Shown here in pieces: positions 36,311-48,004 of a DNA stretch of 64,000 bases. Source of the stretch: Heterodontus francisci (lineage: Eukaryota); assembly GCF_036365525.1 (NCBI RefSeq), contig NC_090397.1, positions 56,336,091 through 56,400,090 of the forward strand. The letters are read 5' to 3'. Within the stretch, counting starts at the first letter, position 1. Every line of letters begins with the position of its first letter. A model generated the notes under the pieces. It saw only the letters and a program-made list of their open reading frames with translations. It had not been told where the DNA came from and searched no databases. The translations under genes were made by a program, and so were the position numbers.

Positions 36311-37174
36311 CTTCCTATTTACATTTGTGCCCTCTCCCTTTAAATACAGCTGAGATTGCGTACTGAGAGAGGACAGGAGGTTCATATTCCATTGAGTCAC
36401 TGCCACTCTCCTGGGACAGCTCCTCAGCAATCCTCGTAATGTATTGGAGAGCAATGCTGGACTGCTGTGATCCTCAAAAAGCCATTTTCAACAATAGTAC
36501 CCAGAGCCACAGTGACAACAGTTTGAGCTTCCGAGGAAGCAGTGTGAGCTTTGATGGAAATGTTGGCGCTGAAATGGAAGCTATGACATCGGTCATCAGA
36601 CACTGCATCACGGTAGCTTCCGCAGGTGTCCTGATGGAGGTGACCATGTTAGAAAGGATGGCTTCAAGCTCTATGCTATACTGGATGTGATCTTCTGAAT
36701 GTTCCTTGACATCGTGCACAGACTTTCTGGCAGGTTTTCCAGTGCACCACACATTTGGTTGTGTACACCCATTGGCCACCTTCTGCCTTGCTCCCCACCC
36801 TTGCGCCTGGTGCTTGGTGTCCAGTGTATCACTGCATGCAGATTCCTTCTCTATCCTGTCCTCTAAAGTAAGCACTGTTACTGTCCCTGAGCTCGTGGCT
36901 GTGATTGTTAGATTGATTGATGGTGCCTTTTCATCATCACTGCCTTCTTCCTTTTTCTCCTCTGGCTGGGAAAGTTCCAGTACTGGGACAAAAAGAGAGG
37001 CCGGGGATCAGAGCAGCACAAAAGGCAAGGCTGAGGATCAGAGTGATACAAAAAGCAAGGCTGGGCTGGGAGTCTGAATCAAATGGGAGGAGGGGAAAAA
37101 ATTGCAGAGTGACGTCACAGCACAAGGAGTCACACAGGGTGAGTACACCGGTAAACTTATAATTTATTTTTATA

Positions 37175-38195: not shown

Positions 38196-41100
38196 AGTTA
38201 TCCTTGTGGGATAAAAACTAAAGCCAATTTGATCATTTATCATATAGCCACAATCAGTGTTCAATTAATTAATCAGATCTAGGGGTTAAAGTTAAATTAA
38301 ATATTAAGGGATTGTAATATTAAAGGTTTCTGAATTTTTCAGTAAATTAAAATCTGGGATATGTAGACAATAAGAGTTAAGTAAAACATCTAAGTTAACC
38401 TCCCTATAAAATAAAGTGATGTCAGCATAAGGGATTCAGATGATTGGTGAGTAACTGGTCAGTTTTTATTTATTCAAGTCTTAAGTTGATTTCTGGCAGG
38501 TTAGCTAATAGTCCTGTGGAGTGCATGTCCTGGACAGCCACCTGTGCAGGAAGTGTAGTCAGCTGGTGGAACTCAAGCTCCAGGTTGATAATAAGTTTGA
38601 GCAGCAGCTGGCATCACCAGTGCATCCATGAGGCTGAGAGCTTTAGAGGTTGTCACCTCACAGCTTAAGGGTATGTAGGCAGAGAGGGAAGGGGTGACCA
38701 CCAGGCAGTCAAAGAGGCCTGGGCAGGTATTGCAGGAGTCTCCAGTGCATTCAGTTCTGATGAGAGTAATGGTTCCTCTGGGGAGTGCAGGCAGAGCCAA
38801 GTCCACGTCACCACAGCTGGCTTAGCTGTACAAGGGGTAAGGAGGAAGATTGGGAAAGCAATAGCGCTAGGGGAACCTATAGTTAGGTGAACAGACTGGT
38901 GTTTCTGAGGCCACAGACATGAATCCAGGAGGATATGTTGTCTCCCTGATGCCAGGGTCAAGGATGTCACTGAGCAGCTGCAGAGCACTTTGAGGGGTGA
39001 GGGTGAACAGCCAGAGGTTGTGGTACATATCGGTACCAATGCTATAAGCAGAAAGAGGGATGAGGTCCTGCAGATTTTAGGGAGCCAAGAAGGAGACTAG
39101 CAGGCAGGACATCAAATGTCGTAATCTCCAGATTACTTCCAGTGCCATGCGCTAGTGAGTATAGAAAGAGGAGGATAGAGCAGATGAATGCTTGGTGGGA
39201 TGGTGGTGCAGGACAGAGGGCTTTAGATTCCTGGGACAGTGGAAATGGTTCTGGGGGAGGTGGGATGTGTACAGGCTGGACAGATTGCATGTCAACAAAA
39301 CTGGGACCAATGTCCTTGTGGGATGATTTGCTTGTGCTATTGGGGAGGGTTTAAATTGACTTGGCAGGGGAATGGGAACTGGGATGTAACGATAGAGAGG
39401 AAAACGAGGTTGACCAAGAATTGGGAGAGACAGATAGCACTAGAGTAAGAAATAGTAAGGTATTAGGTGGGGTCAGAGTAAGAAGGAATTCGACAAGGAC
39501 TAAATTAGGTTTTCAGTGCATGTGTTTGAATGTACAGAGCATGGTAAATAAGGTTGGTGAGCTGCAGGCACAGATAGGCATGTGGGAATATGATGTGGTG
39601 ATAGCAGAGACCTGGCACTAAAAAGGAGAGGCTTGGATACTAAGTATGCCTGGATACAAGGTATTCAGGAAAGATCGGGAAGGGAAGAAATGAGGAGGGC
39701 TGGCAATATTGATTATGGAGAATATTACACAGTTTTGGGGAGAGAGGATGTCTTGGAAGGGTCAAGGACATAAGCTAAGAAACAATAGAGGTACAATCAC
39801 ACTACTGGCTGTATTCTATAGGCCACCAACTAGTGGGAAAGATAAAAAAGAACAAAGTTGCAAGGAAATTACAGAGAGGTGCAAAAACTATAGAGTTATA
39901 ATGGGGGACTTTATCCGAATATAGACTGGAATTGTAGTGTAAAGGGCAGAGAGGGGAAAGAGTTTCTTTAGTGTGTTCAGCAGAAATTTCTAGATCAGTA
40001 TGTTTCTGGCCCAACCAGGGAGGCATTGCTGGATCTGGTTGTGGAGAATGAGGTGGGAGAAGTGGATCAAGTGTCAGTAGAGAAACATTTAGGGGACAGT
40101 GATCATAATATATCAGGTTTACGTTAGCTATGGATAAGGACAAAGAACAATCCAGAGTAAAATATTTAATTAGAGGAAGACCAATTTTGGTGGGGTGAGA
40201 CAAATCTGGCTGAGGTAAATTGGAATCAAAGATCGGCAGGCAAAACTGTTACGGAACAATGGGCTGTCTTTAAAGAGAAGATGGTTTGCGTACAGTTGAG
40301 CTGCATTCCCACAAGGGAGAGAGATAGGTCAAACAAAGCCAGAGCTCCCTGGATGACAAAAGAGAGAGTCAGATGAAGCAGAAAGAGGGTGCATATGACA
40401 GATGTCAGGTTGAAAATACAGGTGAGAACCAGGCTGAATATAAAAAGTTAACATAAGAAATAGGAGCAGAGTAGGCCTTTCAGCTCCTCGAGCCTGCTCC
40501 GCCATTCAATAAGATCATGGCTGATCTGATCATGGTCTCAGCTCCGTTGTCTTTCATGCACGCCATAACCCTCGACTCACTTGTAGAACAAAAATCTGTC
40601 TAACAGCCTTGAATATATTCAATGGCCCAGCCTGCACTGCTCTCTGGGGTAGAGAATTCCAAAGATTAACAACCCACTGAGGGAAGAAATTCCTCCTCAT
40701 TTCTGTCTTAAATGGGAGACCCCTTATTCTGAAATTGTACCCCCTCATTATCGATTCCCCACGAGGGGAAACATCCTCTCAGCATCTACCCTGTTAAGCC
40801 CCCTCAGGTTCTTATATGTTTCAATAAGATCACCTCTCATTCTTTAAACTCCAATTAGTATAAGCCCAACCTGCTCAACCTTTCCTCATATGACAACCTT
40901 TTCATCCCAGGAATCAGCCAAGTGAATCTTCTCTGAAGTGCCTCCATTACAAGTATATCCCTCTAATAAGGAGACCAAAACCATACGTAGTACTCTAGGT
41001 GTGGTCTTACCAATGCCCTGTACAGTTGTAGCAAGACTTCCCTACTTTTATACTTCATCCCCCTTGCAATAAAGGTCAAAATTCCATTTCCCTTCCTAAT

Positions 41101-42424
41101 TACTTGCTGTAACTGCAGGGTAACTTTTTGTGATTCATGTACAAGGACACCCAGGTCCCTCTGTACCACAGCATTCTGCAGTCTCTCTCCATTTAAATAA
41201 TATTCTGCTTTTCTATTCTTCCAACCAAAGTGGACAACCTCACTTTTTCTCACATTATACTTTACCTGCCAAATTTTTGCCCACTCATTTAAACTATCTA
41301 TATCGCTTTGCAGACTCTTTGTGCCCTCTTCACAACTTGCTTTCCCACCTATATTTGTATCATCAGCAAATCTGGTTACAATACACTCGGTCCCTTTATC
41401 CAAGTCATTAATAAAGATTGTAAATAGTTGAGGCCCCTGTGGCACATCACTAGTTACAGTTTGCCAAAAAAATAATCCATTTATCCTGATTCTCTGTTCC
41501 CTGTTAGTTAGCCAACCCTCTATCCATGCTAATATATTATCCCCAACACCATAGGCTCTTATCTTGTGGAGTAACTGGGGCTGTACCAAATTCATGGTCA
41601 AATGTTACAAATTACACGATTACCGCATTTTAAGGATCTTGAATATCACAATTTCAAATATTTAAATTGTAAATTTCACAGTGTTGCAACAAAACATGAA
41701 AATGATCTATTTAAAACAAACAAAAAGGTTTCTGGTTTCAAATGGCATTTATTGTACACTCAAAAACTATGGTAGAAAGCTGTCAATAAACAAGTCACAT
41801 TCCTTACTCACTGAAGTCAGTGGCTGAATGTGAGCATGGAGCAGCCTGCAACTGTCTCTTTCTTCACACCTTGTCTCTGTGCTGTGAACACCTGTCTGTG
41901 TTTAGACACAGCTCTCTCCGCGTCTGCAGAGTTTGTTGGAATTGTCAGACAGCGCCATACTGGCCTTGCAAGTTGGAGTAATTCTGCACTCCACAGAGTT
42001 CCAAAACTGCAACACATGCAAAGTACAATCTACTTCTTTTGCAATGCTTTTATGAACAGGAATCTCCAGCCTACAGTTCTTGTCAAAGCCAGGAATCGCA
42101 TTCAACTAGTTTAAATCCACCATCAACATTTGTGCACAGTCAAAGATACTCACAGCTTTCAGGAATGCCGCAGAAGGTTTTTGAAATCTCTGAGCTGCAT
42201 TTTCTTCACCACTTGACTGTTCTCCATAGCAGTAATAGTGTTTGAGCTTCTTTGCCATGCAAGAAAACACCTGTTGAGTAAAGGCATTTAATTCAGCATC
42301 ATCAGTGTTGTTCGTTTGACTATGCTTCAGTCCAGAACAATACATCCATTACTTTATTAAAAGCTTTGTGGATTGTGACATGTCAAGATTCAAACCAAGT
42401 GACAAAATCCATCAGTCATGCAGC

Positions 42425-42790
42425 ATTCATAGGACTGGACAGACTAGATGCAGGAAGGATGTTCCCGATGGCAGGGGAGTCCAGGACGAGGGGTCACAAT
42501 CTAAGGATAAGAGGTAAGCTATTTAGGACTGAGATGAGGAGGGATTTCTTCACCCAGAGAGTGGTGAACCTGTGGAATTCTCCACCACACAAAGCAGTTG
42601 AGGCCAAATCATTAAATATATTCAAGAAAGAATTAGATATAGTTCTTAGGGCTAAAGGAATCAAGGGATACGTGGAGAAAGTGGGAACAGGGTACTAAGT
42701 ATGGATGATCAGCCATGATCATATTGAATGGCGGTGGAGGCTCGAAGGGTCAAATGGCCTACTCCTGCTCCTATTTTCTATGTTTCTATT
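42425..42790 (+). mobile_element. CR1 3' fragment inside the hAT element
   Basis: GLDRLDAGRMFPMAGESRTRGHNL..FFTQRVVNLWNS plus CR1 3' UTR. Confidence 0.9.
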
Positions 42791-43187
42791 CTTGGCAACA
42801 AACTGAACCTCCTCATTAAGCTGAGCATTGTATAGAAGGGTTACAATGTCTGTTAAAACCTGTGTTTTCAGTGTCGGTGTGAGCTCTTCTGAGATGATGT
42901 CTCAGTAGTATTTCAGGTGAGCTGCATGATACTATGCTGCCCGAAACCAAGAATTACAACATGTAATTACTGGCTCTGGAGGAAGGGCGATGTTTTGTTC
43001 CCCAATTTAAGCCATTTCAGCCACATTTGCAATGTGTTGCCTGTATTAAAGCTTGTGATTAGAGCAGTGTTTGAAGATCTCTTTTATGTAGCTGACAAGT
43101 TAGTCGACTTTACCAAGCTCGCTTTTCCACAGCTTACTGATGAGAAATTATATATGCATCATATGTAAGTAATATGGACAGCATTAG

Positions 43188-43592
43188 GGGGAGACAGTGA
43201 TGTAGTGGTAATGTCACTGAACTAGTAATCCAGGGACCCAGGCTAATGCCCTGGGTACGTGGGTTCAAATCCCACCACGGCAGCTGGTGGAATTTAAATC
43301 TGATTCAAAAGAAATCTGGAATTGAAAGCTAGTCTCAGTAATGGTGCCATGAAGCTATCATCGATTGTTGTAAAAACCTATCTGGTTCGTTAATGTCCTT
43401 TAGGCAAGGAAATCTGCCATCCTTACCTGGTCTGGTCTACCTGTGACTCCAGACCCGCAGTAATGTGGTTGACTCTTAACTGCCCTTTGAAATGGCCTAG
43501 CAAGCCACTCAGTTATCAAGGGCAATTAAGGATGGACAACAAATGCTCGCCTTGCCAATGACCCACCCACATCACAAAAAAGAATTTAAAAA
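43188..43592 (+). mobile_element. SINE family 2, full length, inside the hAT transposase
   Basis: gggagacagtgatgtagtgg...gggttcaaatccc head; LINE-like tail and A-rich end. Confidence 0.85.
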
Positions 43593-43642
43593 ATGGCATT
43601 ACATCTTGAAGCACAGATCCAAAAGATTTTGTCATGTAAGTT

Positions 43643-45330
43643 TGTAACACTCACACAAGGAGAAATTTTGAACTATGATGAACCCAAAACAGACACCTTT
43701 TGCTGCAAGACAAGATGGAGTGAGGTCAGGTGACCTCTCTTGTTCTGTGAATACACATGGTAACTGCTGGAATGCTGAACAAATTGTGATGTCTGGTCAA
43801 TTGTTGAAGAAAGCATTAGAAATGTAAAATGGCCCATTCAATATTAATGGCTACCCCTCTTCAACCAATTGGGCTAACAATGACTTTGCAGACATAGCGG
43901 CTGGATTTTGTTCCCACCCTAACGTCGCATTCCATGGTGAGTGGGGGGACGGGGACTGGAAAATCAGAACAGCAGTGGCTGTCACGGAACTCGATGCCAG
44001 GATCGTCGGTACCGATCTTCCCGGTGGCGGGAAGCTCCGTCGTGATCCCTCTATCGCTCTGCGACGGGACCCGAGTTAGCATATTTGAATAACATATTTG
44101 CGTGAATTAAAATATAAACAACAGTGATCTTACCTTCAGTTCCTGATCCTCAGCATGACGAGCGGCACTCAAGTACAGGGAAAGGTGGCGCCACCAAGGT
44201 GGGGAAGGGATGAACTCTGCACTCTGATGAGTAGGGGGGAAGGTGTGAACTCTGCACTGTAATGGGTTGAGGGGAAAGGGGTGAACTCTATGTTACAGTG
44301 TACTGTTTGAAGGGCTGGCAACCTTCTGAAAATGGCGCCAGCACCTGATTCTTCAACAGGTGAATGGCGTAGCTGAGACCACCTCTGCAACATGATGGGT
44401 GGGCGGCTGCCGTGAATATGTAAAATGGCTGCCCATCGCGTTATCACATTGGCGTGGGTCCTGTGAGGGACAGCCGCCATTTTCCATGCCCACTGCCGTT
44501 CTCAGTGGCGGGAATACAAAATCCAGCCCAGAGACTCCAGACTCAAACTCAGAATAATGGATGTGAACAAAACACCACTTTATCAAGATGGTATAGAGAT
44601 GAGCAACATCCAAACCCATTATCTAACAATAGCCACACCTTCAAGCACCATTTATGAAAACACAATGGGAGTGAAACTTGGGTCACCTGACAGAAGCCAA
44701 GCCTCTGATCAGATTTTAATAATAGACATTTTCTGTGGAAAGCAGAAAGCCAGAAGGAAGAGAGACTCATCCTGCAAGAAGAAGGACACTGCCAGAACTC
44801 CATCTTTAAACTGTCTAGAGGCAGAGATGAAAGGTGACCTTGAATCTCCCTCCCTGAGAAATTGTAACAGGATTTTTTGCCGTTGAACTGTCACTGAGAT
44901 TTAACCAAATAGGTCTGCAGCAAAGCATCCATCCATCTGAAACTTTCCAATGTCTGACTTCAGTGAACCAGGCAAAAGGAAAAACAGACCTGCACTGCTT
45001 TTAAATCTTCCTCCCAGGGATACATGCAAGGTTTCACAACAAACTCTTTTTTAAAACCATCAGACCTAAATGCATGCTATCTTTTAATCTCTATCTTTTC
45101 TTGTGTGTTTGCATTGTATGGGTGAGTGGGCGAAGTTGCGAATATTTTTGGGTATTGTGTAATAAACATTTATATTTCTTTAAACCTATGAGAAAACCTG
45201 TCATTTTTCTGTTTATTGACCATTAAGATGCTCAAGGTTTAAAACATCTTTCTAATAAAAATGCAGCCTTCGGTCAGTTAAGAGGTGAAAAAGGGAAACC
45301 ACCCCTATCATTTCCCACCTGTCCATAACA
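43643..45330 (+). mobile_element. Solo LTR inside the hAT transposase, containing a MITE (~43898-44529)
   Basis: tgtaac...ataaca with perfect TSD agtt (43639-43642, 45331-45334); removing it restores DNATYMTK; the MITE has TIR ggctggattttg / caaaatccagcc. Confidence 0.82.
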
Positions 45331-46324
45331 AGTTGCATTGTCACTAATGACAGCAGATACTTTGTTGAAATCGGCACCGTATTTTGAAACCGTTTTGATT
45401 ATCGCTAGGGAATCTGTGGTATGAATAACAGCTTCTAAGTAGAAGCAGTTTGCAAGCACTGTTGTTAGCTTTCTTGACTGTACATCTTCAGCTTTACCTG
45501 ACAAAAAATCAAGTAAAATATGCATCAAATAGTTGTTTTGCTCATTGGTGGACACATTACAAATAATTGCAAAAGACTCACAAGCGTTAATCTGAGTCTT
45601 CATCTCCTCCCAATGTGTAGCAAAAACCTTCAGTAGGTAGTCCTGTTGTAGTTTATTTTCACTTGGCAAGCAACCACCATTTTGCACATTACGTTGAATG
45701 AATACCCGCAGCTTTGGGTGATCAAGTTTTTCCAGTGGTATGTTGGCACATGGAAAAGCATCCACAAATTCCATTATAACCAACTGAAGATCTTCTGAGC
45801 TCTCTGTTGACTTAACAAGAGATGAAACCATTGCTCGTTTTTTTTGCATGTTCGTTTTCTAGCAGTGTGGTGTCAGATGCTCTCTTCCTGCAATTGCCAT
45901 TTTGCACATTATGTTGAATGAACACCCGCAGCTTTGGGTGATCAGTTTTTCCAATGGTATGTTGGTGCTTGCAAAAGCACCCACCAGTTCCTTTGTAACC
46001 AACTGACAATTTTCTGAGCTTTCTGTCGACTTCTTAAAAAGAGATGAAACTGTTTCTTTTTTTGCCTGTTCACTTCCCAGCAGTGCGATGTTCAGACTCT
46101 AAGTGATGCTGAACCGTTGCCCGGTGTGTGTGATCCAATGAAACATTGCAACTTGTACAAAACAATATTCCACCATCGGCATGCAGAATTTGGCTTCCAA
46201 ATTCTTTCCCTCAATGTGCTGCAGTAATGTTGTGGCCATTTTCGATTTGCTCATTCTGGCATTCTCACTTGTCTGCTAATACTTGAAACTGCTGCTCTCA
46301 AAACAACACTGGAAGCCCTCCCTC

Positions 46325-46680
46325 ATCTACCAATCAGCGGGTTGAGCCTTGTGTCAATCACTAAAATACGTGATGTTTGCAACATGCCCAGCAATCAGCG
46401 AGGTGAGCCTTGTGTAACCACGAAAACGGGTGAAGTTCGCAACTTTTTTTAATTCTTTCATGGGATGTGGGTGTTGCTGGCAAGGTCAGCATTTGTTGCC
46501 CATCCCTAATTGCCCTTGACAACTGAGTGGCTTGCTAGGCCATTTCAGAGGGCAGTTAAGAGTCAACCACATTGCTGTGGGTCTGGATTCATGCCCAGCA
46601 ATCAGTGAGGTGAGCTTTGTGTCAATCACTAAAAAGCGTGATGATCGCTACATGCCCAGCAATCAGCAACTTGAGACTTA
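46325..46680. repeat. ~61-bp subterminal tandem repeats of the hAT element, split by a SINE family 2 fragment (46444-46590)
   Basis: catgcccagcaatcagcgaggtgagccttgtgtcaatcactaaaa..cgtgat repeated about 4 times. Confidence 0.75.
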
Positions 46681-48004
46681 TGTTAATGAATAAAATGTGC
46701 GAAGTTCGCACAATGGCCGATTTCTCAGAGGACCCAAAATTTCATGGTCCGTGGTGCAATTTTCACAGTCGTGAATTTGGTAGGGCCCTAGTAGTAACCT
46801 TTTATATGGCACCTTATCAAATGCCTTTTGGAAATCCAAATACACTATCTCTACTGGTTCCCCTTTATCCACCCTGCTTGTTTCATCCTCAAAGAACTCA
46901 AATAAATTTGTCAAACCAATTTCCCTTTCATAAAATGATGTTGACTCTGCTTGATTGTATTATGATTTTCTATATGTCCTGCTACTACTTCCTTAATTCC
47001 AGTATGGATTCCAGTATTTTCCCAAAGACAGATGTTATGTTAATTGGACTATAGTTTCCTACTTTCTGTCTCCTTCCTTTCTTGAATAAGGGTGTTACAT
47101 TTGTGGTTTTCCAACCAGCTGGAACCTTTCAGAATCTCGGGAAATCTTGGAAGACTATAACTAATGCATCCACTATCTATGCAACCACTTCTTTTAAGAC
47201 CTGATGATGCAGGCCATCAAATCCAGGGGAATTGTCAGCCTTTAGTCCCATTAGTTTTCTTAGTATTTTATCTCTATTGATAGTGATTGTTTTAAGTTCC
47301 TCTTTCCCTTTTCCCCCCTGATTTTTGGGATATTTTACTATTATTACAATCCTTTTAATGGTCTTCTACCATGAAGACCGTTACTTGTTCACAGTCTCTG
47401 CCAGTTCCTTGTTTGCCATTATTAATTCCCCAGTCTCATCCTCTAAGGGACAAACATTTACTGTAGCTACTCTCTTCCTTTTTATATACTTGTAGAAGCT
47501 CTTACTCTCTGTTTTTACATTTCTTGCTAGATTTCTCTCATAATCTAATTTCGCCCTTTTTTTCAGTCATCCATTGTTGGCTTCTAAAATGTTTCCAATC
47601 TTCTGGCCCACCAGTAATCGTCACAGTACAGTACACCTATCCTTTCAATTTGAATTATCTTTAACTTTCTCAGTTAGCCACAGATGGTTCATCCTTCTTG
47701 TAGAGTCTTTCTTTCTGTGGAATATATCTTTGTTGAGAGTAATGAATTATCTCCTTAAATTTTTGCCCCTGCTTTTGACATATTTTCCCAGTACACTTTA
47801 GCCAACTCTGTGTTCATGCCTTTCCAATTACCTTTGTTTTAAGTTTTTAAGACACCAGTTTCAAACCCAAGTTTCTCACCCTCAAACTGAATGTGAAATT
47901 TCATCATGTTATGATCACTGTTCCTGAGAGTATCCCTTACTATGAGATTATTAATTAGCCATGTCTCATTACACATTACCAAGTCTAAAATAGCCTGTTC
48001 CCTG

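Follow-up and report, generated by a model that had tools for sequence, protein, structure and literature searches.

A decayed hAT transposon with a CGGBP-type N-terminus inside a CR1 element of the shark Heterodontus francisci

Introduction

In a 64,000-nucleotide stretch of the genome of the shark Heterodontus francisci (NCBI RefSeq assembly GCF_036365525.1, contig NC_090397.1, positions 56,336,091 to 56,400,090 of the forward strand; hereafter the window), a preliminary description placed a hAT transposon of intact outline at 41576..46790. Its transposase was said to begin with a module like that of the protein CGGBP1, and the element was taken for a close relative of the CGGBP1 ancestor. 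What is this element, and how near does it stand to CGGBP1? Very probably, it is a neutrally decaying copy that belongs to a 2.3-kb hAT family, now extinct, whose transposase has a CGGBP-type N-terminus; the family is likely of the hAT-19 type, and the copy is lodged in a CR1 long interspersed nuclear element (LINE). The observations that carry this answer are its ends and target site, its collinearity with siblings, its neutral decay, a duplication and a catalytic change shared with other copies, the Hermes-like fold predicted for a sibling, and its placement in trees away from CGGBP1.

That CGGBP domains stem from hAT elements has already been published. A CGGBP1 domain model picked 29 of 824 RepeatMasker hATs, mainly hAT-19 (13 of 16), and for four hAT CGGBP domains the motifs match sequence in the subterminal regions of the elements themselves; the same study describes dozens of domestications of the domain, suggests horizontal movement, and has no cartilaginous fish in its Table S1, which uses the 2018 library (PMC8097297). 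A hAT19 origin of CGGBP1 has also been supported (PMC9004415), and CGGBP1 has been described as seemingly derived from one of the coelacanth CGGBPs (PMC11575156; bioRxiv 10.1101/2024.11.14.623544). Our literature search, which lacked most subscription journals and Repbase Reports, found nothing on this family in sharks.

Ends and insertion site

The window copy reads on the minus strand, from 46790 to 41576, with the following outline.

41576..46790, minus strand: whole hAT element, a decayed, insert-expanded copy of the 2.3-kb family, collinear with the sibling L032:3841-6125
46772..46790, minus strand: left terminal inverted repeat (TIR), 19 bp, 21/22 to the family 22-bp TIR
41576..41594, plus strand: right TIR, 18/22 to the family TIR
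46791..46798, minus strand: target-site duplication (TSD) copy 1, GTTACTAC, 8 bp
41568..41575, minus strand: TSD copy 2, GTTACTCC, 8 bp
46799..47800, minus strand: host CR1 LINE on the 5' side of the insertion, outer limit approximate only
40450..41567, minus strand: host CR1 LINE on the 3' side, reverse-transcriptase (RT) C-terminus and 3' end

At the two ends, TAGGGCCCTACCAAATTCA stands opposite TGGGGCTGTACCAAATTCA with 16 of 19 bases matching, a short TIR of the hAT kind that is a perfect 22 bp in the family consensus; the flanking GTTACTAC and GTTACTCC agree at 7 of 8 bases and form the 8-bp TSD of the superfamily. When the element and one TSD copy were excised in silico, an ungapped CR1 RT stretch was restored in 5 of the 5 listed alignments that span the junction, and the flank is recognised as Pfam RVT_1 (E 3e-10). 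When all position pairs in 10 kb are considered, a TIR and a TSD would occur together by chance with a probability of roughly 0.0045, and a chance origin is removed by end-to-end collinearity with full-length siblings: in one of these (L032:3841-6125, 2,285 bp), 2,276 of 2,285 bases are collinear with the window copy, in six pieces at 76-88% identity. The TIRs and 8-bp TSD reported in the preliminary description are thus borne out, whereas its "preserved" cis ends are so in outline only, since the consensus ends hold 10 subterminal CGTGAA motifs, of which the window copy retains one, the repeats being CpG-decayed. These motifs are putative transposase binding sites.

Target sites of the family lean to an NT(T/C)AT(G/A)AN-like pattern, for example CTCATGAT and ATTATAAG, a possible insertion preference.

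Decay of the window copy

Between the ends lie the remains of one open reading frame (ORF) and several later arrivals, including short interspersed nuclear element (SINE)-like and long terminal repeat (LTR)-like repeats.

41817..46254, minus strand: broken transposase ORF, ATG at 46254, stop at 41817, with 10 stops and 7 frameshifts
46073..46254, minus strand: zf-BED-like part of the CGGBP module (consensus C33, C36, H51, H57), broken by a frameshift and a stop
45673..46110 (limits approximate), minus strand: 219-bp tandem duplication covering the linker and the first half of the Hermes-type DNA-binding/dimer domain
45556..45558, minus strand: Asn replacing the first catalytic Asp (consensus D171), common to all three duplication-bearing copies
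41817..42029, minus strand: C-terminal hAT dimerisation region, SADAER, third acidic residue (consensus E563)
46443..46598, unstranded: putative short SINE-like repeat in the 5' non-coding part, inverted match to 43444-43557
43648..45329, unstranded: insert 1, putative solo-LTR-like repeat of about 1.05 kb (TG...CA), with AACT duplicated (4 bp)
43189..43594, unstranded: insert 2, putative SINE-like repeat of about 405 bp
42429..42787, plus strand: insert 3, CR1 LINE 3' end in opposite orientation, matching in inverted form the 3' end of the flanking CR1

The 5' SINE-like repeat, the duplication and the three ORF inserts account for the extra length of the window copy over its sibling. On either side of the 5' SINE-like repeat, some 110 bp from the 5' region of the element recur, and insert 1 totals 1.68 kb, its solo-LTR-like repeat being split by an inner piece of about 635 bp (about 44529-43896). 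Over 574 readable codons, the protein is 84.8% identical to the 595-amino-acid (aa) family consensus. The motifs quoted in the preliminary description, NITAAH*GKEFG...QHHLES, EFVDAFPCANIPLEK...QQDYL and IPTNSADAERAVS, are all present, and SDNAT-YM...HIT becomes readable once two inserts are excised.

Nonsynonymous to synonymous (N:S) changes number 76:29 in the window copy against 3508:1305 in the background (relative omega 0.97, p 0.91), and the copy is neutrally decaying. Its catalytic core has suffered D171N, C268Y, H271Y and W335C, and PF05699 falls under the cut-off (E 0.0049), whereas it is above the cut-off in siblings. A working copy would have an open ORF, an intact set of catalytic residues and intact subterminal repeats; the window copy has none of these. 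The words "intact" and "reconstructable" overstate the case: the family can be rebuilt as a consensus, but the window copy itself, with its 10 stops, 7 frameshifts, four inserts, neutral evolution and eroded subterminal sites, is a poor template. The preliminary description makes no mention of the tandem duplication, the lost catalytic-core residues or the CpG decay of the subterminal repeats.

The solo-LTR-like repeat at 43648-45329 has many copies elsewhere, about 85% identical, and several other copies apparently also bear an insert at this internal site, around base 800. Rfam gave no tRNA match for insert 2; a weak tmRNA match at this SINE-like insert (E 0.0015, below gathering) was not taken as real.

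An extinct family with a Hermes-like transposase

First-look candidates in the same genome numbered 1,799 by protein search (150 scored) and 1,852 by a C-terminal query (131 scored), totals that should not be read as copy numbers. Sixty copies gave a consensus 2,305 bp long, with a single 595-aa ORF and no intron. Outside CpG, these copies diverge from it by a median of 6.5% (range 4.8-8.5%), their CpG sites are 24-44% decayed, and none of the 60 is young or active; 12 of the 18 copies with both ends have an 8-bp TSD matching at 6 or more of 8 bases.

At the family level, the DDE, CxxH and Trp motifs of hAT transposases are all present (D171, D243, E563; C268/H271; W335), a layout that the family presumably has in common with Hermes; D171, D243, C268, H271 and the Trp are nearly invariant across 60 homologues, in an alignment whose first row is without E563. 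The structure predicted for a sibling (predicted local distance difference test score 90.4) has a Hermes-like fold: the top 12 Foldseek matches are all Hermes transposase (E 4.5e-11 to 4e-9). Siblings also have the C-terminal dimerisation domain (PF05699). The family thus resembles Hermes (PDB 4d1q, 8edg, 8sjd) in overall predicted fold (E 4.5e-11, TM-score about 0.5) and in its 8-bp TSD, and is unlike it in sequence (about 14% identity); phmmer of the sibling ORF against PDB sequences returned no match at E up to 10.

A subfamily without the catalytic aspartate

The 219-bp duplication (73 codons) of the window copy recurs in two further copies among 40 scored, G000:C41 and G000:C4 (hereafter C41 and C4). 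All three have D171N and D178N, both non-CpG changes found elsewhere in 2 of 51 and 1 of 49 copies, respectively, and the TSDs of the window copy and C4 are separate. The sharing of D171N and the duplication argues that this lineage was probably mobilised by the transposase of intact sister copies; it would have been catalytically dead before it spread, and would have moved in trans.

It is very improbable that the window copy was instead autonomous at its insertion, with D171N/D178N and the duplication arising separately or through later gene conversion. The three copies are 10-12.5% apart and united by only six derived non-CpG sites, C41 and C4 share 11% and 9% with the window copy, modestly over the 4% median, and D171N is seen in two other copies as well, all of which would suit such a history. 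However, three copies from different contigs have the same 219-bp duplication and, with it, two rare changes at non-CpG sites, which speaks against it.

Mobilisation in trans would fit the following course, modelled on Hermes biology. The zf-BED finger and the adjacent domain would bind the repeated CCGTGAAA/TTTCACGG end motifs, in which one strand has CGG, and the RNase-H-like D171/D243/E563 core, with C268xxH271 and W335, would excise the element and leave 8-bp duplications at its target. The window copy, from a subfamily without the catalytic Asp, was likely pasted into the CR1 LINE by the transposase of intact sisters; the family would have become extinct after one broad burst, and four repeats would later have inserted into the window copy.

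Distance from CGGBP1

The N-terminus of the family is the CGGBP domain of the hAT-19 subclass, that is, a zf-BED finger followed by a Hermes-type DNA-binding domain (DBD). The consensus is 41.2% identical (63 of 153) to human CGGBP1 over the whole BED + Hermes module, and the whole of amniote CGGBP1 (167 aa) has its homologue in transposase residues from about 2 to 159 (41% identity), unlike the transposase in being a host gene without the catalytic core. The three human CGGBP1 motifs given in the preliminary description are all present in the human sequence (P0269). With Pfam, the module was undetected both in window fragments and in human CGGBP1; amniote CGGBP1 was missed by our first homologue search and recovered with an alignment query. 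On one point the preliminary description was right: the element is a hAT that was once mobile, its N-terminus is of the CGGBP type, and its host is a cartilaginous fish.

The preliminary description went further and held the family to be a close mobile relative of the source element of amniote CGGBP1, so that rebuilding it would recover a progenitor system, and this we consider very unlikely. In its favour are the 41.2% identity, the CGG within the end motifs and the fact that, of everything scored in this genome, a copy of the family matches human CGGBP1 best (scored matches at most 43% identical; 150 scored of 1,512 candidates). However, other proteins are nearer to human CGGBP1: coelacanth LOC102354807 (55.6%), tuatara A0A8D0L3M5 (52.3%), reedfish LOC114660799 (51.4%) and an ENA protein (49.3%). 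By blastp score to human CGGBP1, the consensus ranks 19th and the window copy 42nd among 207 rows other than amniote CGGBP1, and the consensus reaches only this rank even though searches seeded with the shark family favour its own relatives.

Three trees were built: one of 69 rows (mixture model, quick search), a careful one of 35 rows cut from these (34 left out; LG+G4 without mixture) and one of the DNA-binding module alone, with 50 rows hand-picked so that the window copy and proteins scoring high against human CGGBP1 were represented (LG+G4 without mixture). In all three, CGGBP1 joins the coelacanth LOC102354807, tuatara A0A8D0L3M5 and reedfish LOC114660799 proteins (100/100 in the 35-row tree, 100/99 in the domain-only tree), and the shark family lies apart, beside coelacanth, turtle and crocodilian proteins. 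Approximately unbiased (AU) tests reject a clade of CGGBP1 and the shark family (p 3.6e-61 and 1.5e-106, and 6.2e-5 for the domain-only tree), and the shark family is thus not the sister group of amniote CGGBP1. The preliminary description had named, as the outcome that would speak against it, a grouping with unrelated hAT clades no closer to CGGBP1; the phylogeny comes near this, as the family stays inside the CGGBP-domain group, where many other members stand at least as near to CGGBP1. The module would have come to both the family and CGGBP1 from a much older hAT ancestor.

The proteins that form a clade with amniote CGGBP1 (100/100) are transposase-derived host proteins: P0040 (coelacanth LOC102354807), P0074 (tuatara) and P0048/P0215 (reedfish and bichir), with lengths of 634 and 916 aa and a 409-aa model for tuatara. 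The coelacanth protein can be aligned to CGGBP1 from residue 1 (55.6%), and catalytic motifs are eroded in it and in the reedfish protein. On sequence grounds, these proteins are candidates for the true precursor or orthologue of CGGBP1.

Probable assignment to hAT-19 and weight of the reading

The family is likely of the hAT-19 type. Elements of this type (hAT-13_LCh, hAT-19_Crp) are alike in having a zf-BED finger and Hermes-type DBD alignable to CGGBP1, a single ORF, a length slightly above 2 kb, as read from the axis labels of Fig. S3, and CGG-bearing subterminal motifs, and the tree neighbours of the shark family come from coelacanth, crocodilians, turtles and Culex, which are hAT-19 host species (PMC8097297). 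The window copy differs from them in being dead and carrying the 73-codon duplication.

Several points weigh against the reading proposed here. The hAT-19 label stems from the CGGBP domain and from tree neighbours (coelacanth, crocodilian and Culex proteins) rather than from comparison with a Repbase consensus. Because CGGBP1 occupies only 27% of the columns of the full-length 35-row tree, it was supplemented with the domain-only tree. Neither of the two careful trees went beyond LG+G4 to a mixture model, and the mixture tree, though in agreement, was only a quick search. The AU p-values may be too small, since searches of the constrained trees may be incomplete. The duplication-bearing subfamily is known from just three copies, tied together by the six sites mentioned above. 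The catalytic role of D171 is assigned by its Hermes-like spacing and its conservation, not by a residue-level structural overlay. Finally, all copies were chosen by search score, so that younger or odder ones could be missed.

Taken alone, the window copy is of little weight, being one of very many dead copies. Its modest contribution is to bring sharks into the range of CGGBP-type hATs, through a family whose ends are clean and whose consensus can be built.

Siblings with open frames and a 1.1-kb derivative

Three siblings (C41, C32 and C266) keep open frames of 564-673 codons, whereas 28 other long, non-selected copies, among them the window copy, carry 6-21 lesions each (under a Poisson model, a given copy would escape all lesions with a chance of about 2e-6). 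Relative omega is 0.47 for C41 (p 0.003), 0.40 for C32 (p 0.0003) and 0.62 for C266 (p 0.03); outside the region used to find these siblings, p is 0.31, 0.02 and 0.10, respectively, so that only C32 is significant there. Each of the three lacks a catalytic-core residue. That the window copy is itself a domesticated or exonised CGGBP-like gene is barely credible: a 194-codon open stretch (45858-45277) persists in it, NCBI models several family fragments as "CGGBP1-like" and selection is seen in three siblings, but a frameshift and a stop sever its BED finger, its 17 lesions fall within the range of the non-selected copies, and its relative omega of 0.97 is not that of an open frame under purifying selection.

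C32 (L032:4105-5841) has a 579-codon frame within an intact TIR/TSD outline and has lost the third catalytic Glu. An NCBI model (P0218, 888 aa) makes it the end of a C2H2 zinc-finger protein, spliced behind two C2H2 fingers, and the locus is a possible host-transposase fusion gene, a class of genes that is the topic of bioRxiv 10.1101/2020.05.07.082677. Among the listed holders of C32, none is on record as RNA. Contigs of three runs guessed to be RNA and of one DNA run matched C32 in short pieces mixed with paralogues, showed no splice joint and speak neither for nor against its expression.

C41 (L031:3301-5319) is a 666-aa open frame with the 219-bp duplication and D171N, without a recognisable TSD; its nearest siblings are at most 91% identical (40 scored). 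The duplication is likely older than the domestication of C41, because two dead copies carry it too, and the window copy serves as a neutral control for this selected sibling, which suggests that duplication and loss of catalysis preceded its taming. Directly downstream of C41 lies a 911-codon open LINE RT frame (L031:2-2735), probably of a young element, which we take to be RTE-like. C266 (L033:571-2262; 564 codons) has a damaged BED finger and CxxH; the contig that carries it is short, and a long tandem repeat lies beside it.

The family also gave rise to a 1.1-kb non-autonomous derivative by internal deletion, in at least 40 copies (40 of 40 scored matches span one junction), in which a 168-aa frame remains, that is, the CGGBP module only, at the size of CGGBP1.

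L068, L050, L054, L065, L066 and L103-L121: copies of the 1.1-kb non-autonomous derivative

A second deletion, shared by L048 and L072, leaves about 172 aa. In 22 copies of the derivative, no selection was found on the frame upstream of the deletion junction (N:S 451:164 against a background of 2.69, p 0.85).

Likeness across host lineages

In the 35-row tree, the coelacanth proteins H3A8A2, H3B847 and H3A0T3 and proteins of the turtles Caretta, Natator and Chelonoidis form one clade with the shark family (100/100). Their amino acid identity to the shark consensus is 83.5%, 85.2% and 81.2% for coelacanth, and 78% (sea-turtle fragments) and 69% for turtles; a Logan protein (P0221) reaches 74.5%. 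These relatives, which belong to other host lineages and are known here as proteins only, are filed as P0220, P0168 and P0003 (coelacanth), P0018, P0161 and P0011 (turtles) and P0221, and are 69-85% identical to the consensus.

These lineages split more than 400 million years ago. Identities of 83.5-85.2% to single coelacanth proteins, 78% to sea-turtle fragments and 74.5% to the Logan protein are high for such a split and suggest horizontal transfer, which is possible among shark, coelacanth and turtle lineages; against it, these hosts evolve slowly, and copies in chimaera may favour long vertical persistence. A Ks criterion for horizontal transfer is available (PMC7070016); the words "shark", "turtle" and "coelacanth" do not occur in the main text of that paper, and its supplements may list such a transfer.

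Tentatively, and with more doubt than conviction, these leads may be joined. One hAT family would have moved horizontally among shark, coelacanth and turtle, and this shark would then have domesticated it three times or more, once with a C2H2 zinc-finger gene that took it up as its last exon and once from the catalytically dead duplication lineage of the window copy. The mobile 1.1-kb derivative would have scattered 168-aa, CGGBP1-sized frames, in a natural replay of CGGBP gene birth, and the full-length, eroded transposase gene of coelacanth, bichir and tuatara, to which the trees point, would be the real CGGBP1 precursor. If these leads hold, the family would show in compact form both transfer between slowly evolving vertebrate lineages and repeated domestication, and coelacanth LOC102354807 would be the protein to examine for the origin of CGGBP1.

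Elsewhere in the window, at 36477-37007 on the minus strand, an acidic, low-complexity open frame of 177 codons, without a Pfam match, is a possible host exon or repeat.

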